From NCBI GenBank assembly GCA_964394435.1, contig CAYMXN010000001.1:235928-299927 (forward strand): 64,000 nucleotides of DNA, read 5' to 3'. The notes beneath the pieces were generated by a model, which saw only the letters and a list, made by a program, of their open reading frames with translations, ran no database searches and was not told the DNA's origin. This stretch comes from an uncultured Candidatus Saccharibacteria bacterium. GTDB lineage: Bacteria > Patescibacteriota > Minisyncoccia > UBA6257 > 1-14-0-10-44-23. The position numbers and the translations under genes are program-made. Below, in pieces: positions 3,620 to 59,902 of the stretch. How positions within the stretch are numbered: the stretch's first letter is position 1; each line of letters begins with the position of its first letter.

Positions 3620-3817
3620 CTAGCGGCCAAGCATTTTCTTTACCTCATCACGACTTACTAAGTCTCGCTTAGCAATCTCGGAAGCGACTGCTTTTTGAAT
3701 CATCTCTTCCATTTGCTTCTGATAGTTTTGCGCCTGACCCATTAAGTCTTTCATCTGCTCTGGCGACATATTTTTCATCATATCTTTGGCCGCCTTCATA
3801 TTGTCAAAAAATCCCAT
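3620..3817 (-). CDS. small hypothetical protein (65 aa, Met/Lys/Gln-rich)
   Basis: ORF only. No recognisable domain. Confidence 0.35.
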   Translation of the reverse strand: MGFFDNMKAAKDMMKNMSPEQMKDLMGQAQNYQKQMEEMIQKAVASEIAKRDLVSRDEVKKMLGR

Positions 3818-3948
3818 ATTTTTTATGTATTAATTTTTACTCAAACAAGTATACGAAAATTTCTGAAAAAGTGAAATCGTTTATTCATCTTGCCCTTGAC
3901 GGGAAAAAAGAATAGTATAGAAACACCTTTATTAACCCTTAATTACCT

Positions 3949-5052: not shown

Positions 5053-5054
5053 CA

Positions 5055-5092
5055 ACAAAAAAACCGCTCTCATCTCGAGAGCGGTTTTTTTA
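5055..5092. terminator. bidirectional rho-independent terminator
   Basis: A-run, CCGCTCTC-atctc-GAGAGCGG hairpin, T-run. Lies between convergent genes. Confidence 0.8.
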
Positions 5093-5093
5093 T

Positions 5094-5630
5094 TTATCGT
5101 ACGATGGTTGTTAAGTCGATTTCACTTAGGCGGTTAAACGGTTCCGGCTGACTCTCTTCTTCGGCAACCGTACGTACGCGTGCGATTACTACATTATCCT
5201 GACGAATCACACTGAACTGTTCGCCAATTCCCGCGAACCAACACTGGGCGTAACCAAGTGAGGTCGCTCCTTTTGGCAGCACATCATCAGCTGGGGCGGC
5301 AACTTCTACGCACGAACCCTGATAGACACCGAGGCGATATGGCAAAACCGTAATTTGTCTGCCGTCTGGGCGATACACACCAGTGAGTTGAATACGAACC
5401 TTGGTATTTGGCGTGCCGTAGGCTCCTTCGGCTTGCGGCTCAAACAGCCACTGCACCTTATCAACACGATAGAGCTCACTGGTCGCTACGGTCGTTGAGG
5501 CGCTCTCTTGCTTTTGCTCTACTTCGCCGCCTATCGCGCCATCTTTTGGTCCGGAAAAAACTCCGTACAATACCAACGCAACACCAACTATCAGAATCAA
5601 CGGTACGAGATTGATAATAATCTTTTTCAT
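5094..5630 (-). CDS. membrane-anchored hypothetical protein
   Basis: N-terminal TM helix (MKKIIINLVPLILIVGVALVLYGVF). 178 aa. Confidence 0.5.
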   Translation of the reverse strand: MKKIIINLVPLILIVGVALVLYGVFSGPKDGAIGGEVEQKQESASTTVATSELYRVDKVQWLFEPQAEGAYGTPNTKVRIQLTGVYRPDGRQITVLPYRLGVYQGSCVEVAAPADDVLPKGATSLGYAQCWFAGIGEQFSVIRQDNVVIARVRTVAEEESQPEPFNRLSEIDLTTIVR

Positions 5631-7515: not shown

Positions 7516-7605
7516 CGTACACCCCTTTTCTTAAGGACCTCAAGTATCGTATTCCTTCAACTTGTGCGTGTCAAAATGTCATATTTTATCACTATTTATG
7601 GGCTA

Positions 7606-7634
7606 TTGACATATATATGCTTATATGCTATAAT
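7606..7634 (+). promoter_or_regulatory. consensus sigma70 promoter TTGACA-N17-TATAAT with extended -10 (aTGcTATAAT)
   Basis: TTGACA at 7606-7611, 17-nt spacer, TATAAT at 7629-7634. About 110 nt upstream of the GC-rich ORF start. Confidence 0.6.
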
Positions 7635-7749: not shown

Positions 7750-8691
7750 ATGACCATGCACCACGTTCGCGCCACGATCTGCTTCGTGTCCCCCGACAAC
7801 CAGTGGGGGTTCGCGGAGGTCGTCGACTCGGAGACGGGCGACAAGAAGACGTGGATGTGCCACCGTCTCGGCCGTCGCGACGCGTTCGCGACGCAGCAGG
7901 GTACGATCACCTACTCCGACGCGAAGATCGCGTTCGGTCCCTTCCCGCAGCACGGCGACGTCGTCGTCGTGCTGGCGGAGAGGGCTCCCCAGGAGGGCAA
8001 GCAGTACCCCCAGGCCGTGTGGACCACGGCCGAGCAGTACGACCCCTTCATCGAGATCGCCGCGGGCAACCGCGCCGCCTTCGCCGAGTACGCTCGTGAG
8101 CAGGAGCGGCTCGCCGCCAAGCGGGCGGAGCTCGAGCAGAAGCTCGCCACCCGGCGGGTGGAGCTCGAGCCCCAGGTCGGGCCGCTGCAGAAGCGGTTCG
8201 CGATCCAGGACCTGTCCCCCATCTTCAACCCCCTGAAGATGACCCGGGTCGTCGTCAAGGAGCTCGGCCGCGAGCAGATGCTCGCGGAGACCGAGGACGG
8301 CGTCAAGGTCGTCCTGCCCCTGAACGTCCAGCACCTCGTGGTGATCAACCCGCGCGGCCCGTCGATCACGGCGGCGCCGGCGGCGACGCCCCGGATGCTG
8401 GCGATCGGCGAGGTCGCGTACGTGCGCAGCGCGTACGTGAGCATCCTCGAGGAGGACGAGGACCTCGTCCTCAAGATCCAGGCGAACGCCTGGATCAGCC
8501 AGCTCCAGGCGGAGCGGGTGGTGATGACGGGCCTCACGAAGGCCCAGAACACCCTCGCCATGAAGGCGGTGGAGGCCGCGGACACCGAGCGTCAGCGGCA
8601 GGAGGCGATCGCGCGGTCGCACATCAAGGGGCCGAAGCTGTCGCCCCCGCCCAAGGGCGGCATGGCGAAGGCGCTCGCTCGCGGGCGCTAG
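7750..8691 (+). CDS. GC-rich foreign-looking ORF, 313 aa; N-terminal OB-fold / cold-shock-like region then coiled-coil; function unknown
   Basis: Abrupt GC jump (to about 68% by eye) with strong GC3 codon bias. GAAAGAAAGG RBS. N-terminus (ICFVSPDNQWGFAEVVDSETGDKKTWMCH) resembles the cold-shock-domain core. Own terminator downstream. Confidence 0.6.
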   Translation: MTMHHVRATICFVSPDNQWGFAEVVDSETGDKKTWMCHRLGRRDAFATQQGTITYSDAKIAFGPFPQHGDVVVVLAERAPQEGKQYPQAVWTTAEQYDPFIEIAAGNRAAFAEYAREQERLAAKRAELEQKLATRRVELEPQVGPLQKRFAIQDLSPIFNPLKMTRVVVKELGREQMLAETEDGVKVVLPLNVQHLVVINPRGPSITAAPAATPRMLAIGEVAYVRSAYVSILEEDEDLVLKIQANAWISQLQAERVVMTGLTKAQNTLAMKAVEAADTERQRQEAIARSHIKGPKLSPPPKGGMAKALARGR

Positions 8692-8717: not shown

Positions 8718-8761
8718 GGCGCGGATGCAGATCGAAAGATCTTGTGTCCGCGCCTTTTTTA
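8718..8761 (+). terminator. rho-independent terminator of the GC-rich ORF
   Basis: GGCGCGGA...TCCGCGCC hairpin followed by a TTTTTTATTT run. Confidence 0.7.
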
Positions 8762-9598: not shown

Positions 9599-9622
9599 AC
9601 GCGTTTAGTATATCACCAAATA

Positions 9623-9660
9623 AAACGCCCCCTGCCAATTCTGACTGGGGGCGTTTTATT
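9623..9660. terminator. hairpin terminator
   Basis: AAAACGCCCCC-loop-GGGGGCGTTTTATT. Confidence 0.7.
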
Positions 9661-16996: not shown

Positions 16997-17084
16997 GGAG
17001 GTGTCGCATAGTGGTCTAGTGCGCAGTCCTGGAAAGACTGTGTACCGCAAGGTACCGGAAGTTCGAATCTTCCCACCTCCGCCA
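16997..17084 (+). tRNA. tRNA-Ser (anticodon GGA), CCA encoded
   Basis: GGAGGTG acceptor stem, anticodon loop CTGGAAA, long variable arm, T-arm GGAAGTTCGAATCTTCC, 3' CACCTCC-G-CCA. Confidence 0.8.
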
Positions 17085-17127: not shown

Positions 17128-17172
17128 GACTAACAAAACCCCGCACGTATGACGCGTCATACGTGCGGGGTT
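17128..17172. terminator. bidirectional terminator (CCGCACGTATGACGCGTCATACGTGCGG with flanking A/T runs)
   Basis: Perfect palindrome with GGTTTTGC downstream on plus and AAAA upstream. Confidence 0.7.
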
Positions 17173-17216
17173 TTGCTTACTACTTCTGGAAGAGTGATTA
17201 AAAAATTCGAAAGTTG

Positions 17217-20698: not shown

Positions 20699-20737
20699 CA
20701 AACAAAAACCGCCAGCCCAAGGCTGGCGGTTTTCTTT
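20699..20737 (-). terminator. groEL terminator (CCGCCAGCC-ttgg-GCTGGCGG plus T-run on the minus strand)
   Basis: Seen in sequence. Confidence 0.7.
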
Positions 20738-20738
20738 T

Positions 20739-43194: not shown

Positions 43195-43440
43195 TTACCA
43201 ATCCTTCATCGCAACTTTCGCCTTGCGCTTAATTTTTTGATACAAACGTACTGCTTTTTCTTCGACCCGCGGAGAAACGACCCGTAAAATTTCTCGGCCA
43301 AGGATCCGATACTGACCGCCAACCTTATTAGCTTTAATTACGCCTTTCTTAAGAAGACGTTTGATCGTACTCGTACTCACTTTTAGAAGCTCCTTAGTTT
43401 CGTCGCTCGTGTATACGGTATTTGGGTCGATACTGCTCAT
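43195..43440 (-). CDS. excisionase-type helix-turn-helix DNA-binding protein
   Basis: YTSDETKELLKVSTSTIKRLLKKGVIKANKVGGQYRI matches the excisionase/MerR-like HTH pattern. Start placed at MSSIDPN. Confidence 0.55.
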   Translation of the reverse strand: MSSIDPNTVYTSDETKELLKVSTSTIKRLLKKGVIKANKVGGQYRILGREILRVVSPRVEEKAVRLYQKIKRKAKVAMKDW

Positions 43441-43570
43441 ATCGCCTATTTTAGACGAAGTGTCAAAAGGTGTCAAAAAGGTTCATGGGGATAATCGGTA
43501 ATAAAAAGAGCGGACGATGTATCTCTACATTGTCCGCTCATCGCCCGCCTGTTGGCGGACGGGTGCGAAA

Positions 43571-44263
43571 CTAGTGACCGAAGCGGTAACCGTAACCCTG
43601 TGCACGCGCCCGATGGGCCGCCAACATCACCTCTACAAACGTGTGGCTCATGTCGTACGACCACTCTCCCTCGATCGGGAGCGTATCGAGAGAGTACCAC
43701 TCGAGGCCACTCGCCTCGGCCTGGTTGTCTCCGCTCTTCACCCCGAACACGACCTGCTGGTCGTGCGTACCCGCGTACGTCACGATGTGGGTCGAGGCGT
43801 AGCTGTGCTTGCCCGGGTCGTGGGAGAATCCGTTGCGATTACGACCGTCCATCTGAGGCGCGTACTGGCGCATACAGACCGGATGGGCCCAACCGAGCGG
43901 CAGCTCGACGTCGATGCCGAGATCGCTCTTGTAGTGGAACTTCAAGGCGTCCTCGATGGACTGGTAAAGTCCGACCACGCCGCCGACGATGGCGAGCTTG
44001 CCAGGAAAGCGCCCCGTCCGACGACGGATGACACCGCCGAGCAACTGACCCGTCTTCGGGTCCTGCTTGACGATGACGCCGTCGACACAGGGCACGGCAC
44101 CGAGCTTCGTACGCAAGGGCCAGACCGCTCCCGAGACCCGCCCGTCCGGCTGGACGAGCTGATCGAGATCCGAACGCTGGGCGAGGATCTCGGCGAGTTG
44201 CCGAGTGCTGTAGCCCACCAGCCGATCCGCAAGGTCGGCAGTCGAATCAGTCCTTTCGGACAT
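43571..44263 (-). CDS. GC-rich foreign-looking ORF, 231 aa; Nudix-fold-like with degenerate Nudix box
   Basis: GC jump with GC3 bias. GGAGGT RBS. Region VIVKQDPKTGQLLGGVIRRRTGRFPGKLAIVGGVVGLYQSIEDALKFHYKSDLGI follows Nudix fold topology but lacks the REx2EE catalytic residues. C-terminal LEWYSLDTLP…YDMSHTFVEVML resembles the Nudix C-terminal helix. Confidence 0.5.
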   Translation of the reverse strand: MSERTDSTADLADRLVGYSTRQLAEILAQRSDLDQLVQPDGRVSGAVWPLRTKLGAVPCVDGVIVKQDPKTGQLLGGVIRRRTGRFPGKLAIVGGVVGLYQSIEDALKFHYKSDLGIDVELPLGWAHPVCMRQYAPQMDGRNRNGFSHDPGKHSYASTHIVTYAGTHDQQVVFGVKSGDNQAEASGLEWYSLDTLPIEGEWSYDMSHTFVEVMLAAHRARAQGYGYRFGH

Positions 44264-44314
44264 CGGAAACCTCCGGGAAATACCCTCCGCAACCGATTGT
44301 TGTGGATTAGATAT

Positions 44315-44343
44315 GTTATAGCATAAAATATGCCCAAAGTCAA
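44315..44343 (-). promoter_or_regulatory. sigma70 promoter TTGACT-N17-TGcTATAAC on the minus strand driving the GC-rich ORF
   Basis: -35 at 44338-44343 and -10 at 44315-44320, read as the reverse complement. Confidence 0.55.
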
Positions 44344-51281: not shown

Positions 51282-51316
51282 ACAAAAAAACAGGCAACGA
51301 TGTTGCCTGTTTTTTG

Positions 51317-54574: not shown

Positions 54575-55804
54575 TTAGTACCCTTCGAGCATCGTCGACT
54601 TAAGGTGACCACGGATACGGAGCAAGGCTTTCGCCTCGATCTGACGAATACGCTCACGCGTAACACCAAACTCCTTACCTACCTCTTCAAGGGTGTGTGT
54701 AACTCCATCCTCCAACCCAAAACGCATCTGTAAAATCTTTTGCTCGCGCGGCGTTAAATCAATCAAAATTTCACGAATTTTTTCACGCAAGAGCGCCTGG
54801 CTGGCAACTTGAGCCGGCGTCAAACTCTTATCATCTTTAATAAACTCGGAAAGCGTCGAGTCATCGTCTGAATCACCAACTGGCGACTCGAGGCTGACCA
54901 CGTCCTGACTAATTTTCTGGATGTAGTGAATCTTATCGATTGGCATATCCATCTCACCGGCGATCTCTTCAACGAGTGGGTCGCGGCCAAGCTCTTGAGT
55001 TAATCGGCGCTTAACCTGCGTGTATTTACTGATTGTTTCCACCATGTGTACTGGAATACGAATCGTACGGCTCTGGTCGGCCAGTGCGCGGGTAATAGCC
55101 TGACGAATCCACCAGGTGGCGTAGGTTGAGAACTTAAAACCACGGCGATAATCAAACTTATCAACAGCGCGCGAGAGACCCATATTACCCTCCTGAATCA
55201 AGTCGAGAATCGAGAGGTTGGAGCTGCGGTTTACGTAGCGCTTAGCGATAGAAACGACTAAACGCAAGTTGGCGCTAATAAACTTTTGACGAGCAACTTC
55301 GTCGCCCTTTTCGATACGCTTAGCGAGCTCTTTCTCTTCAAATGACTTTAAAAGCGACGCCTTACCAATTTCTTTGAGATACATCTGTACCGAGTCCGGG
55401 AGGTTGTCCTCGTAATTAATCTCGGTAGCACGCTGGAGCTCTTTCTCGGTAATCTCCTCTTTGTCGCGCGGAACATCAATTAACTGACTCGTTTCAATAA
55501 CTTTAATACTCGACTCGTCGAGCTTGCGATAGATTTCGTCTAAAAAGGTCACATCTTCCTCAATGCGCGGGAAGTAGTGAAGCACCTCGGTATCAGTAAC
55601 ATAACCACGGTCCTTGCCGCGATCGATAAGATCGCCTAACTGTTGGAGGTTAATTTCTTCTCGCTTTTTAGCTTTTGCAGTCTTAGCTGATGCCGCCTTA
55701 CGGGCACTCTTTTTCAGAACAGTCTTTTTCGGCTTGGCGGACTTAGAACGTTTTGCAGCTTGAGCAGATTTTGCTTTTACCGCTTTCTTTTTTGGCATAG
55801 TCAA
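54575..55804 (-). CDS. rpoD: RNA polymerase sigma factor RpoD
   Basis: Lys/Ala-rich N-terminus. Regions 2-4 present ([10 protein letters not shown]…, [33 protein letters not shown]). Confidence 0.9.
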
Positions 55805-56142
55805 ACCAGTATTAATTATAACCCAGATTTCCCTGACAAAAAAATAAGACTATCAATGTGCCAATCCCTATCACTTTTCTCGTATAATGACGCTTCAAAC
55901 GCCTTTATATTGACACAAATAGCCTACTGTTGAAGTATATGGTATTTTTGCGATTTGTCAATGTAGCCGCCTGCCTACCTAATAAGAGTAAATGACCACT
56001 AACTCAATGCTCCAGGCTATCTGAAATGCTGAGTTAGTTGCAGGAGAAGAGGTTTGAATTCTTCTCCTGCGATGCTTGAGGCGAACTCGTACGTTCGCCT
56101 CGACCTGTTGCGCGGGGTACGACCCGCTGTCTCGAGTCTCGC

Positions 56143-56976
56143 CTACGAGGCGAGACCCTTCTTCACCGCGGCGAGGACCACCTCGCCGTCGATTCCGCTG
56201 GCACCCCAGTAGGCGGGCTGTCCCGCCTTGCCGAGGCCTGCGCCACCCGACCAGCCACCCAAGTGCTCCTTCAAGCTGGCACAGAGCGCGCCGTCCCCGT
56301 AGAAGTTCACCTCCCCGTCCTTCGAGAGGATGAGGAGCTGGTCGACGGCCCCGTAGAGGCGGTCAGCGACCGCTGAGGTCTTCGAGTGGTCCATGCGGAC
56401 CACCGTCAGACGTCCGTCCACCTCCTTCGCGCCGATGGCGCGGAGGGCCTCTGTCTCGTGCGCGGGGGTCACCCCCTGCGCCGCACGGTCTAGCGCACGA
56501 ATGCGCTCGACCTCGGCGTCAGATGCCCCGAGCGCCCGCATCGCAGGGACGTACCCCGCGTCGTTGGCACCTACGAGCTCGATCCAGCGACGAGTCTGCT
56601 CGCTGGTCGGCATCTTAATCAGTGCCAAAACCTGCTGCACCGCCGGGGGACGGTGCGACTGGTCGCCGTGATGGTCGACGACCACCACCTCAGTCTGCTC
56701 CGGCCACTCCTTGGTCGGCGAGCACTCGACGAAGATGACGCATTCGATGCCGGCACACCGCGTCGACTTACGGTTGTGCTGCCAGAAGTCTGGTCCGGTC
56801 TGGACCAGGATCTCCTCGACCGTGAGGCCAAGGTCGCCTGCGGCGGCGTAGACATGCGACCCCCAGCCCTTGTTGGGCTGGACCCACTTCTCACCCGCGA
56901 GGGTGAGGAGAGAGCGAACGACCTCCATTTCGAGGTCGTTCCCGCCGAGTACGAACAAACGGTTGGCCTTACCCAT
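56143..56976 (-). CDS. GC-rich foreign-looking ORF, 277 aa; DHH-like phosphoesterase?
   Basis: GC jump with GC3 bias. Start at MGKANRLFVLGG with GGAG RBS. VVVDHHGD (DHH motif III-like) and LGGNDLEMEVVRSLL (motif I-like, substituted). C-terminal Gly-rich GGWSGGAGLGKAG where DHHA1 has GGGH. Weak assignment. Confidence 0.45.
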   Translation of the reverse strand: MGKANRLFVLGGNDLEMEVVRSLLTLAGEKWVQPNKGWGSHVYAAAGDLGLTVEEILVQTGPDFWQHNRKSTRCAGIECVIFVECSPTKEWPEQTEVVVVDHHGDQSHRPPAVQQVLALIKMPTSEQTRRWIELVGANDAGYVPAMRALGASDAEVERIRALDRAAQGVTPAHETEALRAIGAKEVDGRLTVVRMDHSKTSAVADRLYGAVDQLLILSKDGEVNFYGDGALCASLKEHLGGWSGGAGLGKAGQPAYWGASGIDGEVVLAAVKKGLAS

Positions 56977-57174
56977 CGAAATCTCCAGTTGGTCCGGAAG
57001 GACCGTGAATCCACTTCGGGCGTTTCCGCTCAGGTAGGACGACACCTCTGGATAAGCACTTTATTTTACAACCCGGCTTGGAAGGTTGTCCGCTCTGCGA
57101 GCAGCGTTTTAGGCGCAAATACGCTCAAAACACTGCTCACGAACGGTCTATTTCAATGAACGACTTAGATATTT

Positions 57175-57203
57175 AATATAGCATATTTTTATGCTTTTGT
57201 CAA
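57175..57203 (-). promoter_or_regulatory. sigma70 promoter TTGACA-N17-TGcTATATT on the minus strand driving the GC-rich ORF, followed by long structured leader
   Basis: -35 at 57198-57203 and -10 at 57175-57180. Leader contains inverted repeat GAGCAGCGTTTTAG…CTCAAAACACTGCTC. Confidence 0.5.
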
Positions 57204-57224
57204 TCTATCTCTTTTTGTTCCTTC

Positions 57225-58958
57225 CTACCCCTTTCTGCTCAATTGTTGATACTCCTGGATGAGTTTTTCGAGCAGTTGATGGTCCCCGGCACGTTCGGCG
57301 GCAGCCATCTGCCCCTGAATCTCCTGACGCCTCTGTTTTGCCCCCTCCTGGCGTAGTCCACGTACAATATCTTCAAACTCCTTCTTTACCTTTTTCGGGT
57401 CGTCGCTTACCACCAAACTCGCGTGCATCTGAAGCAGGCCAACTCGCGCGGCATCTTCTTGCGATAACTGCGCAACCTGCCCACCCTCGATATATGCATA
57501 TATCGCCTGATAGGTTTCCGGAATATACTCTCGCACTCCCTTTGATTCGATTAGTAATCCGGCTGTGTCATTTAAGAGCATCTCTAACAAACGCTCGACG
57601 AGAATGTCTTTACGCGTTGTTGGCTCGGGAATATCTACGTTGCCGTTTACCTCTTTAGGCGCACTACTACCTGCGAGATCGAGCTTGATCTGACTCATTT
57701 CAGCTATCAACGTCTGCTCGGCGATGCCGCTCATACGAGCAAGCTGGTGGAGCCAGTGGTTTTGTTCTACTGGACTACTCACCTGCTTAATTTTGCCAAG
57801 CGCCTGTCGTACCGCTTTTTTCTTACTTGCTATGTCAGTCGCCCGACCGATGCCGTAGAAGTTGAAGTAATACTCCATTGCGGGCACCGATCTTTCAATT
57901 AACTCTTTCATATGCCCCGGTCGAGACTTAGCGATATCGGCCGGATCTTTAAGATTCGGGTCGTCAAAGATAACTACTTTGACATTAAAGTCATTGGCTT
58001 GCGCCAGGTCGATTGTACGCTCGGCTGCCGCCTTGCCCGCGTTGTCGTTATCAAAAGAGAGCACGAGATTCTCCGCAAACCGGCGAATGGTCTTAAGGTG
58101 GTCGGCGGTAAGCGCGGTGCCGGAGGTGGCGACGAGATTTTTCACGCCATCCTGATAGGTGGCGATAAAATCCATCTGCCCCTCAACTAATACCGCGGTG
58201 TTGGCGTCGCGAATGTCATTTTTTGTTTTCCAAAAGCCAAATAGGAGGCGCGACTTGTTAAAAATAGGCGTTTCTGGACTGTTTACGTACTTTCCGATAT
58301 CCGCGCTCTCGTTGCCCGGCATAACACGCCCCGTAAAACCGATCACTTTCCCGAAGTGATTGTGGAGCGGAAACATAATTCGGTTGCGGAACCGGTCCAT
58401 ATACATTCCCCGCTCGGTTTTAAAGATTAACCCAGCTCGCTCAATATCGGCGGTCGCGTACCCGAGTTTTGTTACGTGGCGAAGTAGCGCGTCCATACCT
58501 GGACCCGCCATACCAATCTCAAACTCTTCAATCGTCTTCTCGGTTAGGCCGCGGCCGGTGAGATACGCTTTTGCTGGACGCCCCATATCCTCGGCGAGCG
58601 TCTGCTTGTAAAAATCTTTTGCGATTCGATTGAGCTCGTACAAGACGTCATACTTTTTCTGATCTTGGTTACCGTGCGTCTTAAGCTCAACCCCTGCTTT
58701 GTCAGCTAAAATTTTGAGTGCGTCTAAAAACTCGATGTTTTCATAACGCATCGTAAATCCGATTACATCTCCCCCGAGCCCACACCCAAAGCAGTGCCAG
58801 ATGCCACGGTCGGGCGAGACCATGAATGATGGGGATTTCTCTTTGTGAAATGGGCAAATTCCCTTCAGGTTTTTCCCTGCTGGTGCGAGCGCGACATACT
58901 GCTTAATAAATTCAGCGATGTCGATTTTTTCTTTGATGAGATCGGTGGTTTCGGCCAT
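57225..58958 (-). CDS. dnaG: DNA primase DnaG
   Basis: Zinc finger CPFHKEKSPSFMVSPDRGIWHCFGCGLGGD. TOPRIM region (EGQMD…). Confidence 0.9.
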   Translation of the reverse strand: MAETTDLIKEKIDIAEFIKQYVALAPAGKNLKGICPFHKEKSPSFMVSPDRGIWHCFGCGLGGDVIGFTMRYENIEFLDALKILADKAGVELKTHGNQDQKKYDVLYELNRIAKDFYKQTLAEDMGRPAKAYLTGRGLTEKTIEEFEIGMAGPGMDALLRHVTKLGYATADIERAGLIFKTERGMYMDRFRNRIMFPLHNHFGKVIGFTGRVMPGNESADIGKYVNSPETPIFNKSRLLFGFWKTKNDIRDANTAVLVEGQMDFIATYQDGVKNLVATSGTALTADHLKTIRRFAENLVLSFDNDNAGKAAAERTIDLAQANDFNVKVVIFDDPNLKDPADIAKSRPGHMKELIERSVPAMEYYFNFYGIGRATDIASKKKAVRQALGKIKQVSSPVEQNHWLHQLARMSGIAEQTLIAEMSQIKLDLAGSSAPKEVNGNVDIPEPTTRKDILVERLLEMLLNDTAGLLIESKGVREYIPETYQAIYAYIEGGQVAQLSQEDAARVGLLQMHASLVVSDDPKKVKKEFEDIVRGLRQEGAKQRRQEIQGQMAAAERAGDHQLLEKLIQEYQQLSRKG

Positions 58959-59531: not shown

Positions 59532-59888
59532 ATGCGACACTGTGCAGTCTGTGGAAAAACTTCAAAGATGGGCGGTACCCGAAAACTTCTTCGTGGTCAC
59601 TACAACCCAACCAACTGGACCCGAAAGTACCCAAACCTCCAGTTGACCTTAACTCCTGACGGTGAGCGCCTTTTGGCTTGCACCCAGTGTATTCGCACCT
59701 TTAGTAAAGCTGCTCGCCTCGAGAAAAAGAAAGCCCTCAAGACCGAAGCTGCTCAAAAAGCTACTGTCGCAGCTCCAGTTGCCGAGAAGAAGGCAGAAGA
59801 GCCTAAAGCAGAAAAAGCCAAGGCACCTAAAAAGCCTCGCGTCCCATCGAAGAACAAGAAAGAGCCTAAAGCCAAAAAAACCGCGTAA
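59532..59888 (+). CDS. rpmB: 50S ribosomal protein L28-like with Lys/Ala-rich C-terminal extension
   Basis: CAVCGK…RKYPNLQ matches the bL28 core. The C-terminal 45 aa is KAEEPKAEKAKAPKKPRVPSKNKKEPKAKKTA (histone H1-like). Confidence 0.6.
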   Translation: MRHCAVCGKTSKMGGTRKLLRGHYNPTNWTRKYPNLQLTLTPDGERLLACTQCIRTFSKAARLEKKKALKTEAAQKATVAAPVAEKKAEEPKAEKAKAPKKPRVPSKNKKEPKAKKTA

Positions 59889-59902
59889 GCGGTTTTTTTG
59901 AT
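59874..59902 (+). terminator. terminator (AAAAAAACCGCGTAAGCGGTTTTTTTG)
   Basis: Seen in sequence. Overlaps the stop codon. Confidence 0.7.

Follow-up and report, generated by a model that had tools for sequence, protein, structure and literature searches.

In the relatives of the uncultured bacterium studied here, the genes dnaG and rpoD can be found side by side. In a 64-kb stretch of its own DNA (contig CAYMXN010000001.1, positions 235,928 to 299,927; hereafter the window), the two genes are separated by about 1 kb of GC-rich DNA that holds a single open reading frame (ORF). The locus thus raises the question of what this ORF encodes, how it came to lie among housekeeping genes that include dnaG, rpoD and alaS, and why its base composition departs from that of its surroundings. 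Our analysis leads to the conclusion that the finding is real and is more interesting than a plain island of horizontal gene transfer, in that an orphan, Patescibacteria-specific branch of the NrN family occupies a hairpin-framed slot. On balance, and with considerable reserve, we hold it probable that the element is an NrN-like cassette in a slot with exchangeable cargo, that its product would act as an orphan signal quencher, and that its GC excess does not come from recent arrival. The substrate and the biological role of the enzyme are what we infer here.

The NrN-family ORF between dnaG and rpoD

The GC content of the island is 0.62-0.69 across positions 56000-57049 (300-nt intervals) and falls to 0.39-0.49 on both sides, with an average of 0.477 for the rest of the window. 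An earlier, sequence-only reading of this DNA had described a dnaG-rpoD pair split by about 1 kb of GC-rich sequence, and both the GC profile and the Pfam assignments of the flanking genes bear this out. Related genomes with adjacent dnaG and rpoD agree with its view that the island interrupts a pair that is otherwise contiguous, and every sequence element that it listed is present, at or within a few bases of the position it gave. The best named matches of the alanyl-tRNA synthetase (AlaRS) from the gene next to the island are Patescibacteria, namely Harrisonbacteria and Giovannonibacteria (61-65% identity), and on sequence grounds the host is a Parcubacteria-type Patescibacterium. The three genes concerned are listed below; GC3 denotes GC content at third codon positions.

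54575-55804, minus strand: rpoD, flanking the island (Pfam)
56143-56976, minus strand: NrN-type DHH/DHHA1 phosphodiesterase ORF, 277 aa, GC 0.66, GC3 0.84 (sequence and predicted structure)
57225-58958, minus strand: dnaG, flanking the island (Pfam)

The ORF starts at an ATG with GGAG lying 7 nt upstream. A longer version of 300 aa from a GTG start (57045) was rejected: the N-termini of the family align at the ATG at 56976, and the stretch upstream of it is conserved as RNA structure. The sequence-only reading had likened the 277-aa product, with its GGAG ribosome-binding site and its GGNDLEM and VVVDHHGD motifs, to the DHH-family phosphoesterases. The ORF and its motifs were recovered as described, and the assignment can now be sharpened to the NrN family. 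Both motifs, VVVDHHGD (D101, H102, H103) and LGGNDLEM (D14, E16), are invariant among 23 aligned homologues.

Searches of the ORF against Pfam, NCBIfam and PHROGs gave no match, and the protein was recognised by PADLOC and the PDB alone. PADLOC placed it in C3a116, a type III CRISPR accessory cluster (1.1e-46), and in DHH_CorA (6.2e-31). In the PDB, phmmer matched only the NrN entries 9lq9, 9lqa/b and 9lqc (best 3.4e-19). An AlphaFold2 (AF2) model built on the 23 homologues, with a mean predicted local distance difference test (pLDDT) score of 94.8, contains the two-domain DHH and DHHA1 fold. The top Foldseek matches of this model are NrN crystal structures with bound SAM-AMP (S-adenosylmethionine-AMP) or SAH-AMP (S-adenosylhomocysteine-AMP), at E 3e-19 and template modelling (TM) scores of 0.71-0.79. 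These are followed by GdpP (5xsp), PAP phosphatase (8a8k) and PggH (7d62), at E 3e-6 to 2e-4 and TM 0.3-0.5, and RecJ-like proteins are matched as well. GdpP, PggH, NrnA and PAP phosphatase share the two-domain fold and the metal-binding DHH motif with the window protein, but the structural match is much weaker. The window protein has no GGGH; its C-terminal domain carries an invariant G-W-x-G-G-x-G (W242, G244, G245), which may stand in its place.

NrN, a phosphodiesterase, breaks down SAM-AMP, which serves as the alarm molecule in those type III CRISPR systems that have a CorA effector (PMC10600005). The residues E21, D85/H86/H87 and D119 of Bacteroides fragilis NrN correspond in the alignment to E16, D101/H102/H103 and D139 here, all of them invariant in the family; the E21A and D119A mutants were taken from PDB entry titles and D85/H86/H87 from PMC10600005. 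The two proteins further agree in fold, in family, in size (277 aa here, 260 in B. fragilis), in the GG.D.EM, DHH and AND motifs and in an R..DR.AQG block. They differ in that they are only about 26% identical and in that the window protein, which belongs to a separate Patescibacteria clade, has an extra insertion of about 25 residues. By sequence and by predicted structure, then, the ORF protein is an NrN-family DHH/DHHA1 enzyme with the full set of known catalytic residues. Together with the fold and with the conserved non-catalytic blocks, these residues argue for an active phosphodiesterase that would act on a small nucleotide conjugate.

Elsewhere the family is tied to type III CRISPR by fusions of NrN to CorA and to the reverse transcriptase (RT)-Cas1 protein, found on Arcobacter plasmids and in metagenomic loci. 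In tblastn searches the ORF protein matches the homologous NrN domain of the Arcobacter NrN-CorA fusions (E 2e-14), which in annotated records adjoin Cmr2/4/5/6, Cas1 and a WYL regulator. NrN-like domains are also fused N-terminally to RT-Cas1 in three of the homologous loci compared here, which carry L-numbers (L151:533-3478, L155:4787-6930 and L146:601-2016). Fusions of 809-863 aa in L046, L067, L075, L090 and L091 have no CorA match in Pfam and are probably NrN-CorA fusions. The window protein, in contrast, has a single domain and its own promoter and leader, and unlike B. fragilis NrN it is encoded alone between dnaG and rpoD. No CRISPR-like tandem array was found in the 64-kb window, nor were CorA or Cas10 found there, in scans that did not take in every window ORF; neither Cas10 nor CorA occurs in the annotated neighbourhoods of close clade relatives. 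The ORF protein is thus a member of NrN by sequence and fold, yet an orphan that stands outside the genomic context by which NrN is defined.

A slot with exchangeable cargo

The dnaG-rpoD spacer of the window holds a one-gene expression cassette, made up of a promoter, a leader, the GC-rich ORF and five hairpins without U-tracts. A comparison that the sequence-only reading had missed comes from a congener, L180 (GCA_964602135.1, CAZRPO010000008.1), whose AlaRS, DnaG and RpoD are 96%, 95% and 99% identical to those of the window. L180 has a GC-rich island (0.63-0.72) at the same dnaG-rpoD site, and in it lies an unrelated ORF. This alternative cargo, ORF-X, has no Pfam or PDB match and a single distant homologue in 5.8 billion clustered proteins. 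The elements of the slot are as follows.

55934-55961, minus strand: second promoter, TTGACA-16-TATACT, serving rpoD downstream of the slot (consensus scan; conserved in L180)
55998-56038, minus strand: terminal stem-loop ACUAACUCA...UGAGUUAGU, 9 bp with an inner 6-bp stem, at the island edge (U-A to C-G compensatory change in L180)
56040-56070, minus strand: 11-bp hairpin, no U-tract
56078-56101, minus strand: 9-bp hairpin, no U-tract
56112-56127, minus strand: 5-bp hairpin, no U-tract, additional to those of the sequence-only reading
56136-56156, minus strand: T1, 9-bp hairpin with the stop codon in its loop (CUC GCC UCG UAG), also in L180
56155-57080, minus strand: variable cargo, the segment of about 925 bp replaced between the window and L180 (nucleotide alignment: nothing aligns inside)
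56977-57067, minus strand: cassette-specific leader (about 85% nucleotide identity to L006; absent from L180)
57068-57089, minus strand: P3, 7-pair hairpin ACAACCU/GGGUUGU, with which the conserved 5′ module closes (also in L180 and L006)
57091-57145, minus strand: P2, 25-pair hairpin of the 5′ untranslated region, part of the 5′ module (folding; common to L180 and L006)
57175-57203, minus strand: sigma-70-type promoter TTGACA-N17-TGcTATATT with extended -10 (consensus scan: 11/12 positions and TG)
L180:5300-6097: ORF-X, alternative cargo of 265 aa, GC-rich, with its own GGAGG ribosome-binding site

The window and L180 share the promoter, P2, P3 and the entire 3′ stack. Nucleotide identity between them is 84% in dnaG up to its stop codon (57224) and 85% in P2, and the similarity stops just past P3, at about 57081. 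It resumes at 56154 and runs unbroken at 89% through the 3′ hairpins, the rpoD promoter and rpoD. Since T1 is common to both loci, two unrelated proteins both end in ..LAS*. These alignments show that the promoter, P2, P3 and the 3′ stack form a fixed platform with interchangeable cargo in between.

The site is empty in other relatives: the gap between dnaG and rpoD measures 140 bp in L182 and 97 bp in L184/L185 (AlaRS 66-67% identical). More distant relatives, L006/L007, carry the same NrN-like cassette as the window, and L183 has no synteny and is uninformative for the slot. The empty-site spacers of L182 and L184 hold GGACAAAA..GCTATATT / GGTATACT, a promoter that resembles the slot promoter and lies directly after dnaG. 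This suggests that the cassette sits behind what may formerly have been the rpoD-proximal promoter.

The structured leader and the 3′ hairpin stack

The extended -10 promoter predicted by the sequence-only reading was found on the minus strand at 57203-57175, with 11/12 consensus positions and the TG, and it is conserved in L180 and L006. Promoter-like sites number four in the region, against 0.6 expected in shuffled sequence. The leader of about 190 nt is structured, as had been proposed, with a minimum free energy of -82 kcal/mol (z = -5.1); the 15-bp imperfect inverted repeat described within it, however, is really the 25-pair hairpin P2.

P2 differs among the window, L180 and L006 by compensatory and one-sided changes that break no pair, and P3 shows compensatory changes from A-U to G-C and from C-G to U-A. 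In L180, P2 precedes the unrelated ORF, and in L028 a hairpin of P2-like sequence lies upstream of a distant homologue. Across about 1.8 Mb of loci the P2-type motif occurs solely upstream of GC-rich cassette ORFs, in four lineages.

Within the cassette-specific leader, UCCAG (57048-57052) is predicted to pair with a CUGGA that overlaps the GGAG ribosome-binding site (56983-56986), in a helix that encloses small hairpins including GGUCC-UUCC-GGACC (56991-57004). Similarly, GAAA (57151-57154) is predicted to pair with UUUC (56978-56981), directly before the AUG at 56974-56976. Of 52 predicted leader pairs compared between the window and L006, six show compensatory and seven one-sided compatible changes, and none is broken. 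Nucleotide identity of the leader is about 85% between these two loci although the nearby proteins are just 56-79% identical. As the ribosome-binding site is paired and a helix abuts the AUG, the predicted pairing points to translational control, in which the helices would throttle translation. P2 and the 3′ stack may govern the processing or the stability of the mRNA; the 25-bp duplex is of the size that RNase III cuts, as in the RNase III-processed leaders of pnp and rnc.

A conserved multi-helix leader with a paired ribosome-binding site and a start codon abutting a helix also recalls riboswitches and ribosomal-protein leaders. In contrast to these, the leader has no Rfam match: at the gathering threshold the covariance models yield only tRNAs in the window, and nothing at E<1 in 55900-57300. 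An nhmmer search with the whole leader reached the window strain and L006, with weak matches in L028 and L095 and no others, so that a broadly conserved riboswitch appears unlikely. A recurring CGU triloop motif is not enriched in the window. The leader sequence is kept in close relatives alone, and distant clade members, which have no sequence identity to it, mostly keep a hairpin of 17-27 bp located 70-170 nt upstream of the start codon. Such a long leader hairpin is present at 16/29 loci with a GC excess of at least 0.10 and at 4/80 others (Fisher p = 3e-8, for loci that are phylogenetically non-independent).

Downstream of the ORF, the sequence-only reading had noted three GC hairpins without U-tracts and an inverted repeat at the island edge. 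The hairpins are present at 56136-56156, 56078-56101 and 56040-56070, and the repeat is the 9-bp stem at 55998-56038. Among 51 pairs of the 3′ stack compared between the window and L180, three show compensatory changes, one of them U-A to G-C in T1, one shows a one-sided change and none is broken. The remaining substitutions fall in loops or linkers, and the stems of the 56040-56127 hairpins are identical. The support for the RNA structures of the slot is good, yet short of statistical proof, with two or three sequences per comparison.

No intrinsic terminator, that is a GC stem with a U-tract, was found in 55700-57400, where 1.5 would be expected. In line with the sequence-only reading, the 3′ hairpins are unlike the terminators of the host, which have flanking A/T tracts. 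Host terminators are GC stems between an A-run and a T-run (5054-5094, 9619-9660, 20700-20738, 51285-51315, 59873-59900 and others), an arrangement which suggests that they work in both directions.

Possible roles: signal quencher or RNA-turnover enzyme

We propose that the enzyme would hydrolyse the phosphodiester bond of SAM-AMP or of a related small nucleotide conjugate, rather than bulk RNA. Its most likely role would be that of an orphan signal quencher, for counter-defence or signal reset, as no CorA or Cas10 partner was found nearby. The sole known substrate of the NrN family is an immune second messenger. The gene is dispensable, as its site is empty in two relatives and holds another ORF in the sister species, and it is fast-evolving. 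Additionally, another GC-rich island of the window encodes a Nudix-fold protein. In being a small potential signal-remover encoded apart from the signal maker, the protein resembles the ring nucleases Crn1-3/Csx3, the viral AcrIII-1 and the phage SAM-AMP lyase. It differs from them in fold, and it was not found in the phage collections searched.

A relative of the gene lies in L095:569-7360 (JGI 3300020769, Ga0207039_1224). There a 53%-identical NrN-like gene stands between a Gad2-like gene (PF26128) and two Cas_csx3 genes, on one strand, with intergenic regions of about 400 bp and duplicated intergenic hairpins (7426/7881 and 7485/7930). This cluster looks like a set of signal-degrading or counter-defence genes. 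A Gad2-NrN fusion exists among the homologues, and together with the Csx3 and Gad2 neighbours it hints at a theme of counter-defence.

A competing reading is an enzyme of RNA turnover, a nanoRNase or oligoribonuclease of the NrnA, GdpP or PggH type that works with RNA helicases and is placed beside the primase and the sigma factor since short RNAs prime or perturb replication and transcription. The DHH/DHHA1 fold does match those of GdpP, PggH and PAP phosphatase, the gene lies within the dnaG-rpoD operon region, and an HrpA-like DEAH/HA2 RNA helicase is a same-strand neighbour at 11/39 clade loci. However, the distribution of the gene is patchy, with the empty and replaced sites described above, and the window contains no homologue of the helicase. 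Its similarity to NrN (E 3e-19) also far exceeds that to NrnA, GdpP or PggH (E 3e-6 or weaker), and B. fragilis NrN cuts neither pApA nor cyclic oligoadenylates (PMC10600005). We therefore regard a role in RNA turnover as unlikely; even so, the signal-quencher reading appears to be ahead of the nanoRNase reading, but not by much.

The helicase loci include L030:9842-13117, L049:4434-7586, L017:10081-13200 and L102:4877-9277. Some copies of the helicase carry DUF3418, and in several clade loci the helicase is GC-enriched too. PADLOC returned generic helicase similarity alone for this neighbour and did not recognise it as a defence gene. Further recurrent neighbours in the clade are a TrmB-type regulator (7 loci) and a large protein containing a GNAT domain (5 loci).

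Probable exchange of the cassette

Four-fold degenerate sites under conserved residues were compared between the window and L006. For the NrN-like gene their identity is 0.61, where composition predicts 0.35; observed and predicted identity are 0.20 and 0.26 for dnaG, 0.33 and 0.26 for alaS, and 0.42 and 0.28 for rpoD. Either the common ancestor of the cassette would be younger than that of its flanks, or synonymous constraint acts on the gene. The cassette protein is nevertheless only 64-67% identical between the two loci, and at this identity in a younger cassette its evolution would be fast. The younger age, the pattern of presence and absence and the replaced cargo of L180 together make exchange between lineages more likely than simple vertical descent. 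On the simplest reading, the cargo would be swapped by homologous recombination between modules that related genomes have conserved.

A different mechanism, in which a mobile cassette system, integron attC-like or IS200/IS605-like, has the hairpin modules as its ends and a site-specific or single-strand recombinase acts in trans in place of ordinary homologous recombination, seems improbable to us. It draws on the base-precise framing of variable cargo by conserved hairpin modules, with a 3′ boundary that falls inside the last codons, on the association of the P2-type hairpin with GC-rich cassette ORFs in unrelated genomes, and on other Patescibacteria that have same-strand arrays of GC-rich ORFs with repeated intergenic hairpins. 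Yet neither the window nor about 1.8 Mb of loci yielded a second copy of the 5′ or 3′ modules to nhmmer, and exact-pattern scans of IMG/VR for the 3′ hairpin T2 and for the P2 flank gave no match. The modules diverge like the adjacent core genes, and neither an integrase nor a transposase was observed beside the slot; the absence of an integrase-like gene holds for the immediate surroundings, the window as a whole not having been scanned against integrase models. Furthermore, the terminal repeats, TGAGTTAGTG in the window and TGAGTTGGTA in L180, read GTTAGTG and GTTGGTA and misfit the attC core GTTRRRY, with T as the third R.

The slot does share several features with integron cassettes and hotspot islets. 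Atypical single-ORF cargo is swapped at a fixed site behind a resident promoter, the 3′ end of the cassette forms hairpins as in integron cassettes, and related genomes have same-strand arrays. In contrast to integron cassettes, the slot lacks an attC core, an IntI gene was not found in its vicinity and the modules are single-copy; each slot cassette has its own leader, and a platform hairpin supplies the stop codon. The same single-copy state in the window, together with the absence of the modules from the other loci and from IMG/VR, sets the slot apart from IS200/IS605-type elements. Short palindromic elements of the repetitive extragenic palindrome (REP) type were seen within the occupied slot of L006 (2460-2560, gtcatt...gaatgac; 3800-3880, cattacccag...ctgggtaatc) and are absent from the window.

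GC excess as a trait of the clade

Named homologues of the protein, at 45-56% identity, come from Staskawiczbacteria, Peribacteria, Kaiserbacteria, Daviesbacteria and other Parcubacteria. In a neighbour-joining tree of 110 distinct family members the Patescibacteria homologues form one clade, apart from proteobacterial and acidobacterial members, from fusions of 816-863 aa and from the RT-Cas1 fusions. The GC content of the gene exceeds that of its flanks by 0.133 +/- 0.059 in 34 clade loci and by 0.033 outside the clade. Within the clade, gene GC follows host GC (r = 0.70, slope 0.68) in hosts that range from 32% to 55% GC. L006/L007 have a 67%-identical orthologue between dnaG and rpoD, with GC 0.69 and GC3 0.87 against flanks of 0.51, and their DnaG and AlaRS are 56% and 60% identical to those of the window. 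We conclude that the GC excess is a trait of the clade and not a sign of recent transfer. It may be caused by a force specific to cassette genes, for instance selection that acts on the mRNA or, where the gene recombines often, GC-biased gene conversion.

The sequence-only reading had implied a foreign insert from high-GC bacteria, and recent horizontal import from a phylum such as Actinobacteria, with the composition and the U-less terminators of the donor, would account for the contrast between the gene (GC 0.66, GC3 0.84) and the rest of the window (0.477), for the sharp boundaries, and for 3′ hairpins that are without U-tracts, unlike native terminators. The claim finds no support, and we consider such an import quite improbable. 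The nearest relatives (45-67% identity) all lie in Patescibacteria-type contexts and form one clade. Our main ground for rejecting the claim is the steady offset across hosts of 32-55% GC, with gene GC co-varying with host GC, which a one-off import would not produce. The same gene, equally GC-rich, occupies the same site in a genome whose DnaG is 56% identical. Divergence of the promoter and of both modules, 5′ and 3′, keeps pace with that of the core genes, and it is the ORF that is GC-rich, but not the promoter or the leader. As refuting evidence, the sequence-only reading had named the same gene at the same position with native composition in related genomes; gene and position recur in L006/L007, whereas the composition there is non-native, a split result.

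An assembly chimera or a contaminating fragment of a high-GC genome, which an abrupt shift of composition in metagenome-derived sequence might bring to mind, can be dismissed: contigs of five independent sequencing runs, compared in answer to the earlier call for junction support, match the window at 99.99-100% identity over the island and its two junctions, L180 and L006 keep the same architecture, and the ORF runs on without a break into a promoter, leader and 3′ modules of native type.

Several observations weigh against the explanation that we prefer, an orphan signal quencher in a slot with exchangeable cargo. With an identity of only about 26% to its B. fragilis counterpart, the enzyme may have another specificity, and the recurrent helicase neighbour points to RNA metabolism and away from signalling. 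No relatives of the protein were found among IMG/VR or INPHARED phages, which weakens an origin as a phage anti-CRISPR. With regard to exchange, the three deep lineages are about equidistant, and ancestral presence followed by loss is compatible with the presence and absence pattern when that is taken alone. A constraint on codon preference could inflate identity at four-fold sites, and as neither a recombinase beside the slot nor a second copy of the modules was found, the mechanism of exchange is a proposal. For each RNA structure the support comes from no more than two or three independent sequences, and any cause given here for the GC excess is one that we infer.

Other GC-rich islands and arrays

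Two further GC-rich islands occur in the window. The second, a single-gene island (7750-8691, plus strand; GC about 0.70, GC3 0.97), codes for an orphan protein of 313 aa that has no match in Pfam, PADLOC or the PDB. It has a consensus extended -10 promoter, TTGACA-N17-TGCTATAAT, near 7598-7626 and a canonical U-tract terminator at 8721-8760. The third (43571-44263, minus strand; GC3 0.80) encodes the 230-aa Nudix-fold protein, with a promoter near 44310-44340. Among its relatives 22/28 match PF00293/DUF4916, the AF2 model (pLDDT 92.5) has Nudix matches in Foldseek, and the Nudix box is degenerate in the window copy. An excisionase-type HTH_17 gene (43195-43476, minus strand) adjoins it. L180 is without both the Nudix-fold and the HTH_17 genes and has a 619-aa gene of the nucleotidyltransferase (NTP-transferase)/GT2 type at that position. 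The longest inverted repeat of the window is a perfect 42-nt palindrome at 17134-17175 (21-nt arms, no spacer), just downstream of a tRNA gene (16997-17081).

In a Staskawiczbacteria genome of about 42% GC (L008:447-16777, MHOT01000013.1), a 16-kb same-strand array holds about 19 ORFs of GC 0.52-0.66. Among them are the NrN-like gene and ORFs for a MYG1-type exonuclease and for a protein of 837 aa that groups with HrpA-like helicases. The intergenic regions are 100-560 bp long, and some contain repeated hairpins (1510 and 4194; 14509 and 15422). Such arrays, in which GC-rich ORFs share a strand and the long intergenic regions are rich in hairpins and in part repeated, suggest that a wider class of GC-rich cassettes exists in Patescibacteria.

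Implications

The enzyme is a new member of a known family, and the slot and the traits of the clade's cassettes vary known themes, those of hotspot islets and integron-like cassettes. Our literature search found no description of a stand-alone NrN or of GC-rich cassettes in Patescibacteria. The slot, with its resident promoter and hairpins, a GC-rich cargo that can be exchanged and a stop codon provided by a hairpin, offers a testable example of the swapping of accessory genes in ultra-small genomes, and one without mobile-element genes nearby. Similarly, an offset of +13 GC points that holds steady in hosts of 32% to 55% GC provides a natural case in which biased gene conversion can be separated from selection on mRNA.

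Patescibacteria rarely have CRISPR. A broader and rather doubtful possibility is that they keep a circulating pool of GC-rich, hairpin-framed single-gene cassettes that move in and out of fixed, promoter-equipped slots among core genes, and that many of these encode enzymes that destroy nucleotide signals, with the NrN-like, Csx3, Nudix-like and Gad2-like genes as candidates. If this were true, the pool would be a quick-change toolkit of these obligate epibionts against the signalling-based immunity of their hosts, of their own phages or of rivals. The GC excess and the long leader hairpin would then be functional signatures, either of an mRNA that survives RNase-based immunity or of processing by RNase III or a helicase.

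To our knowledge, NrN is known solely as an accessory enzyme of CorA-type type III CRISPR systems, where the requirement for it is unexplained. A stand-alone NrN clade in Patescibacteria would mean either that SAM-AMP-like signalling reaches further than these systems or that the family has a second job.

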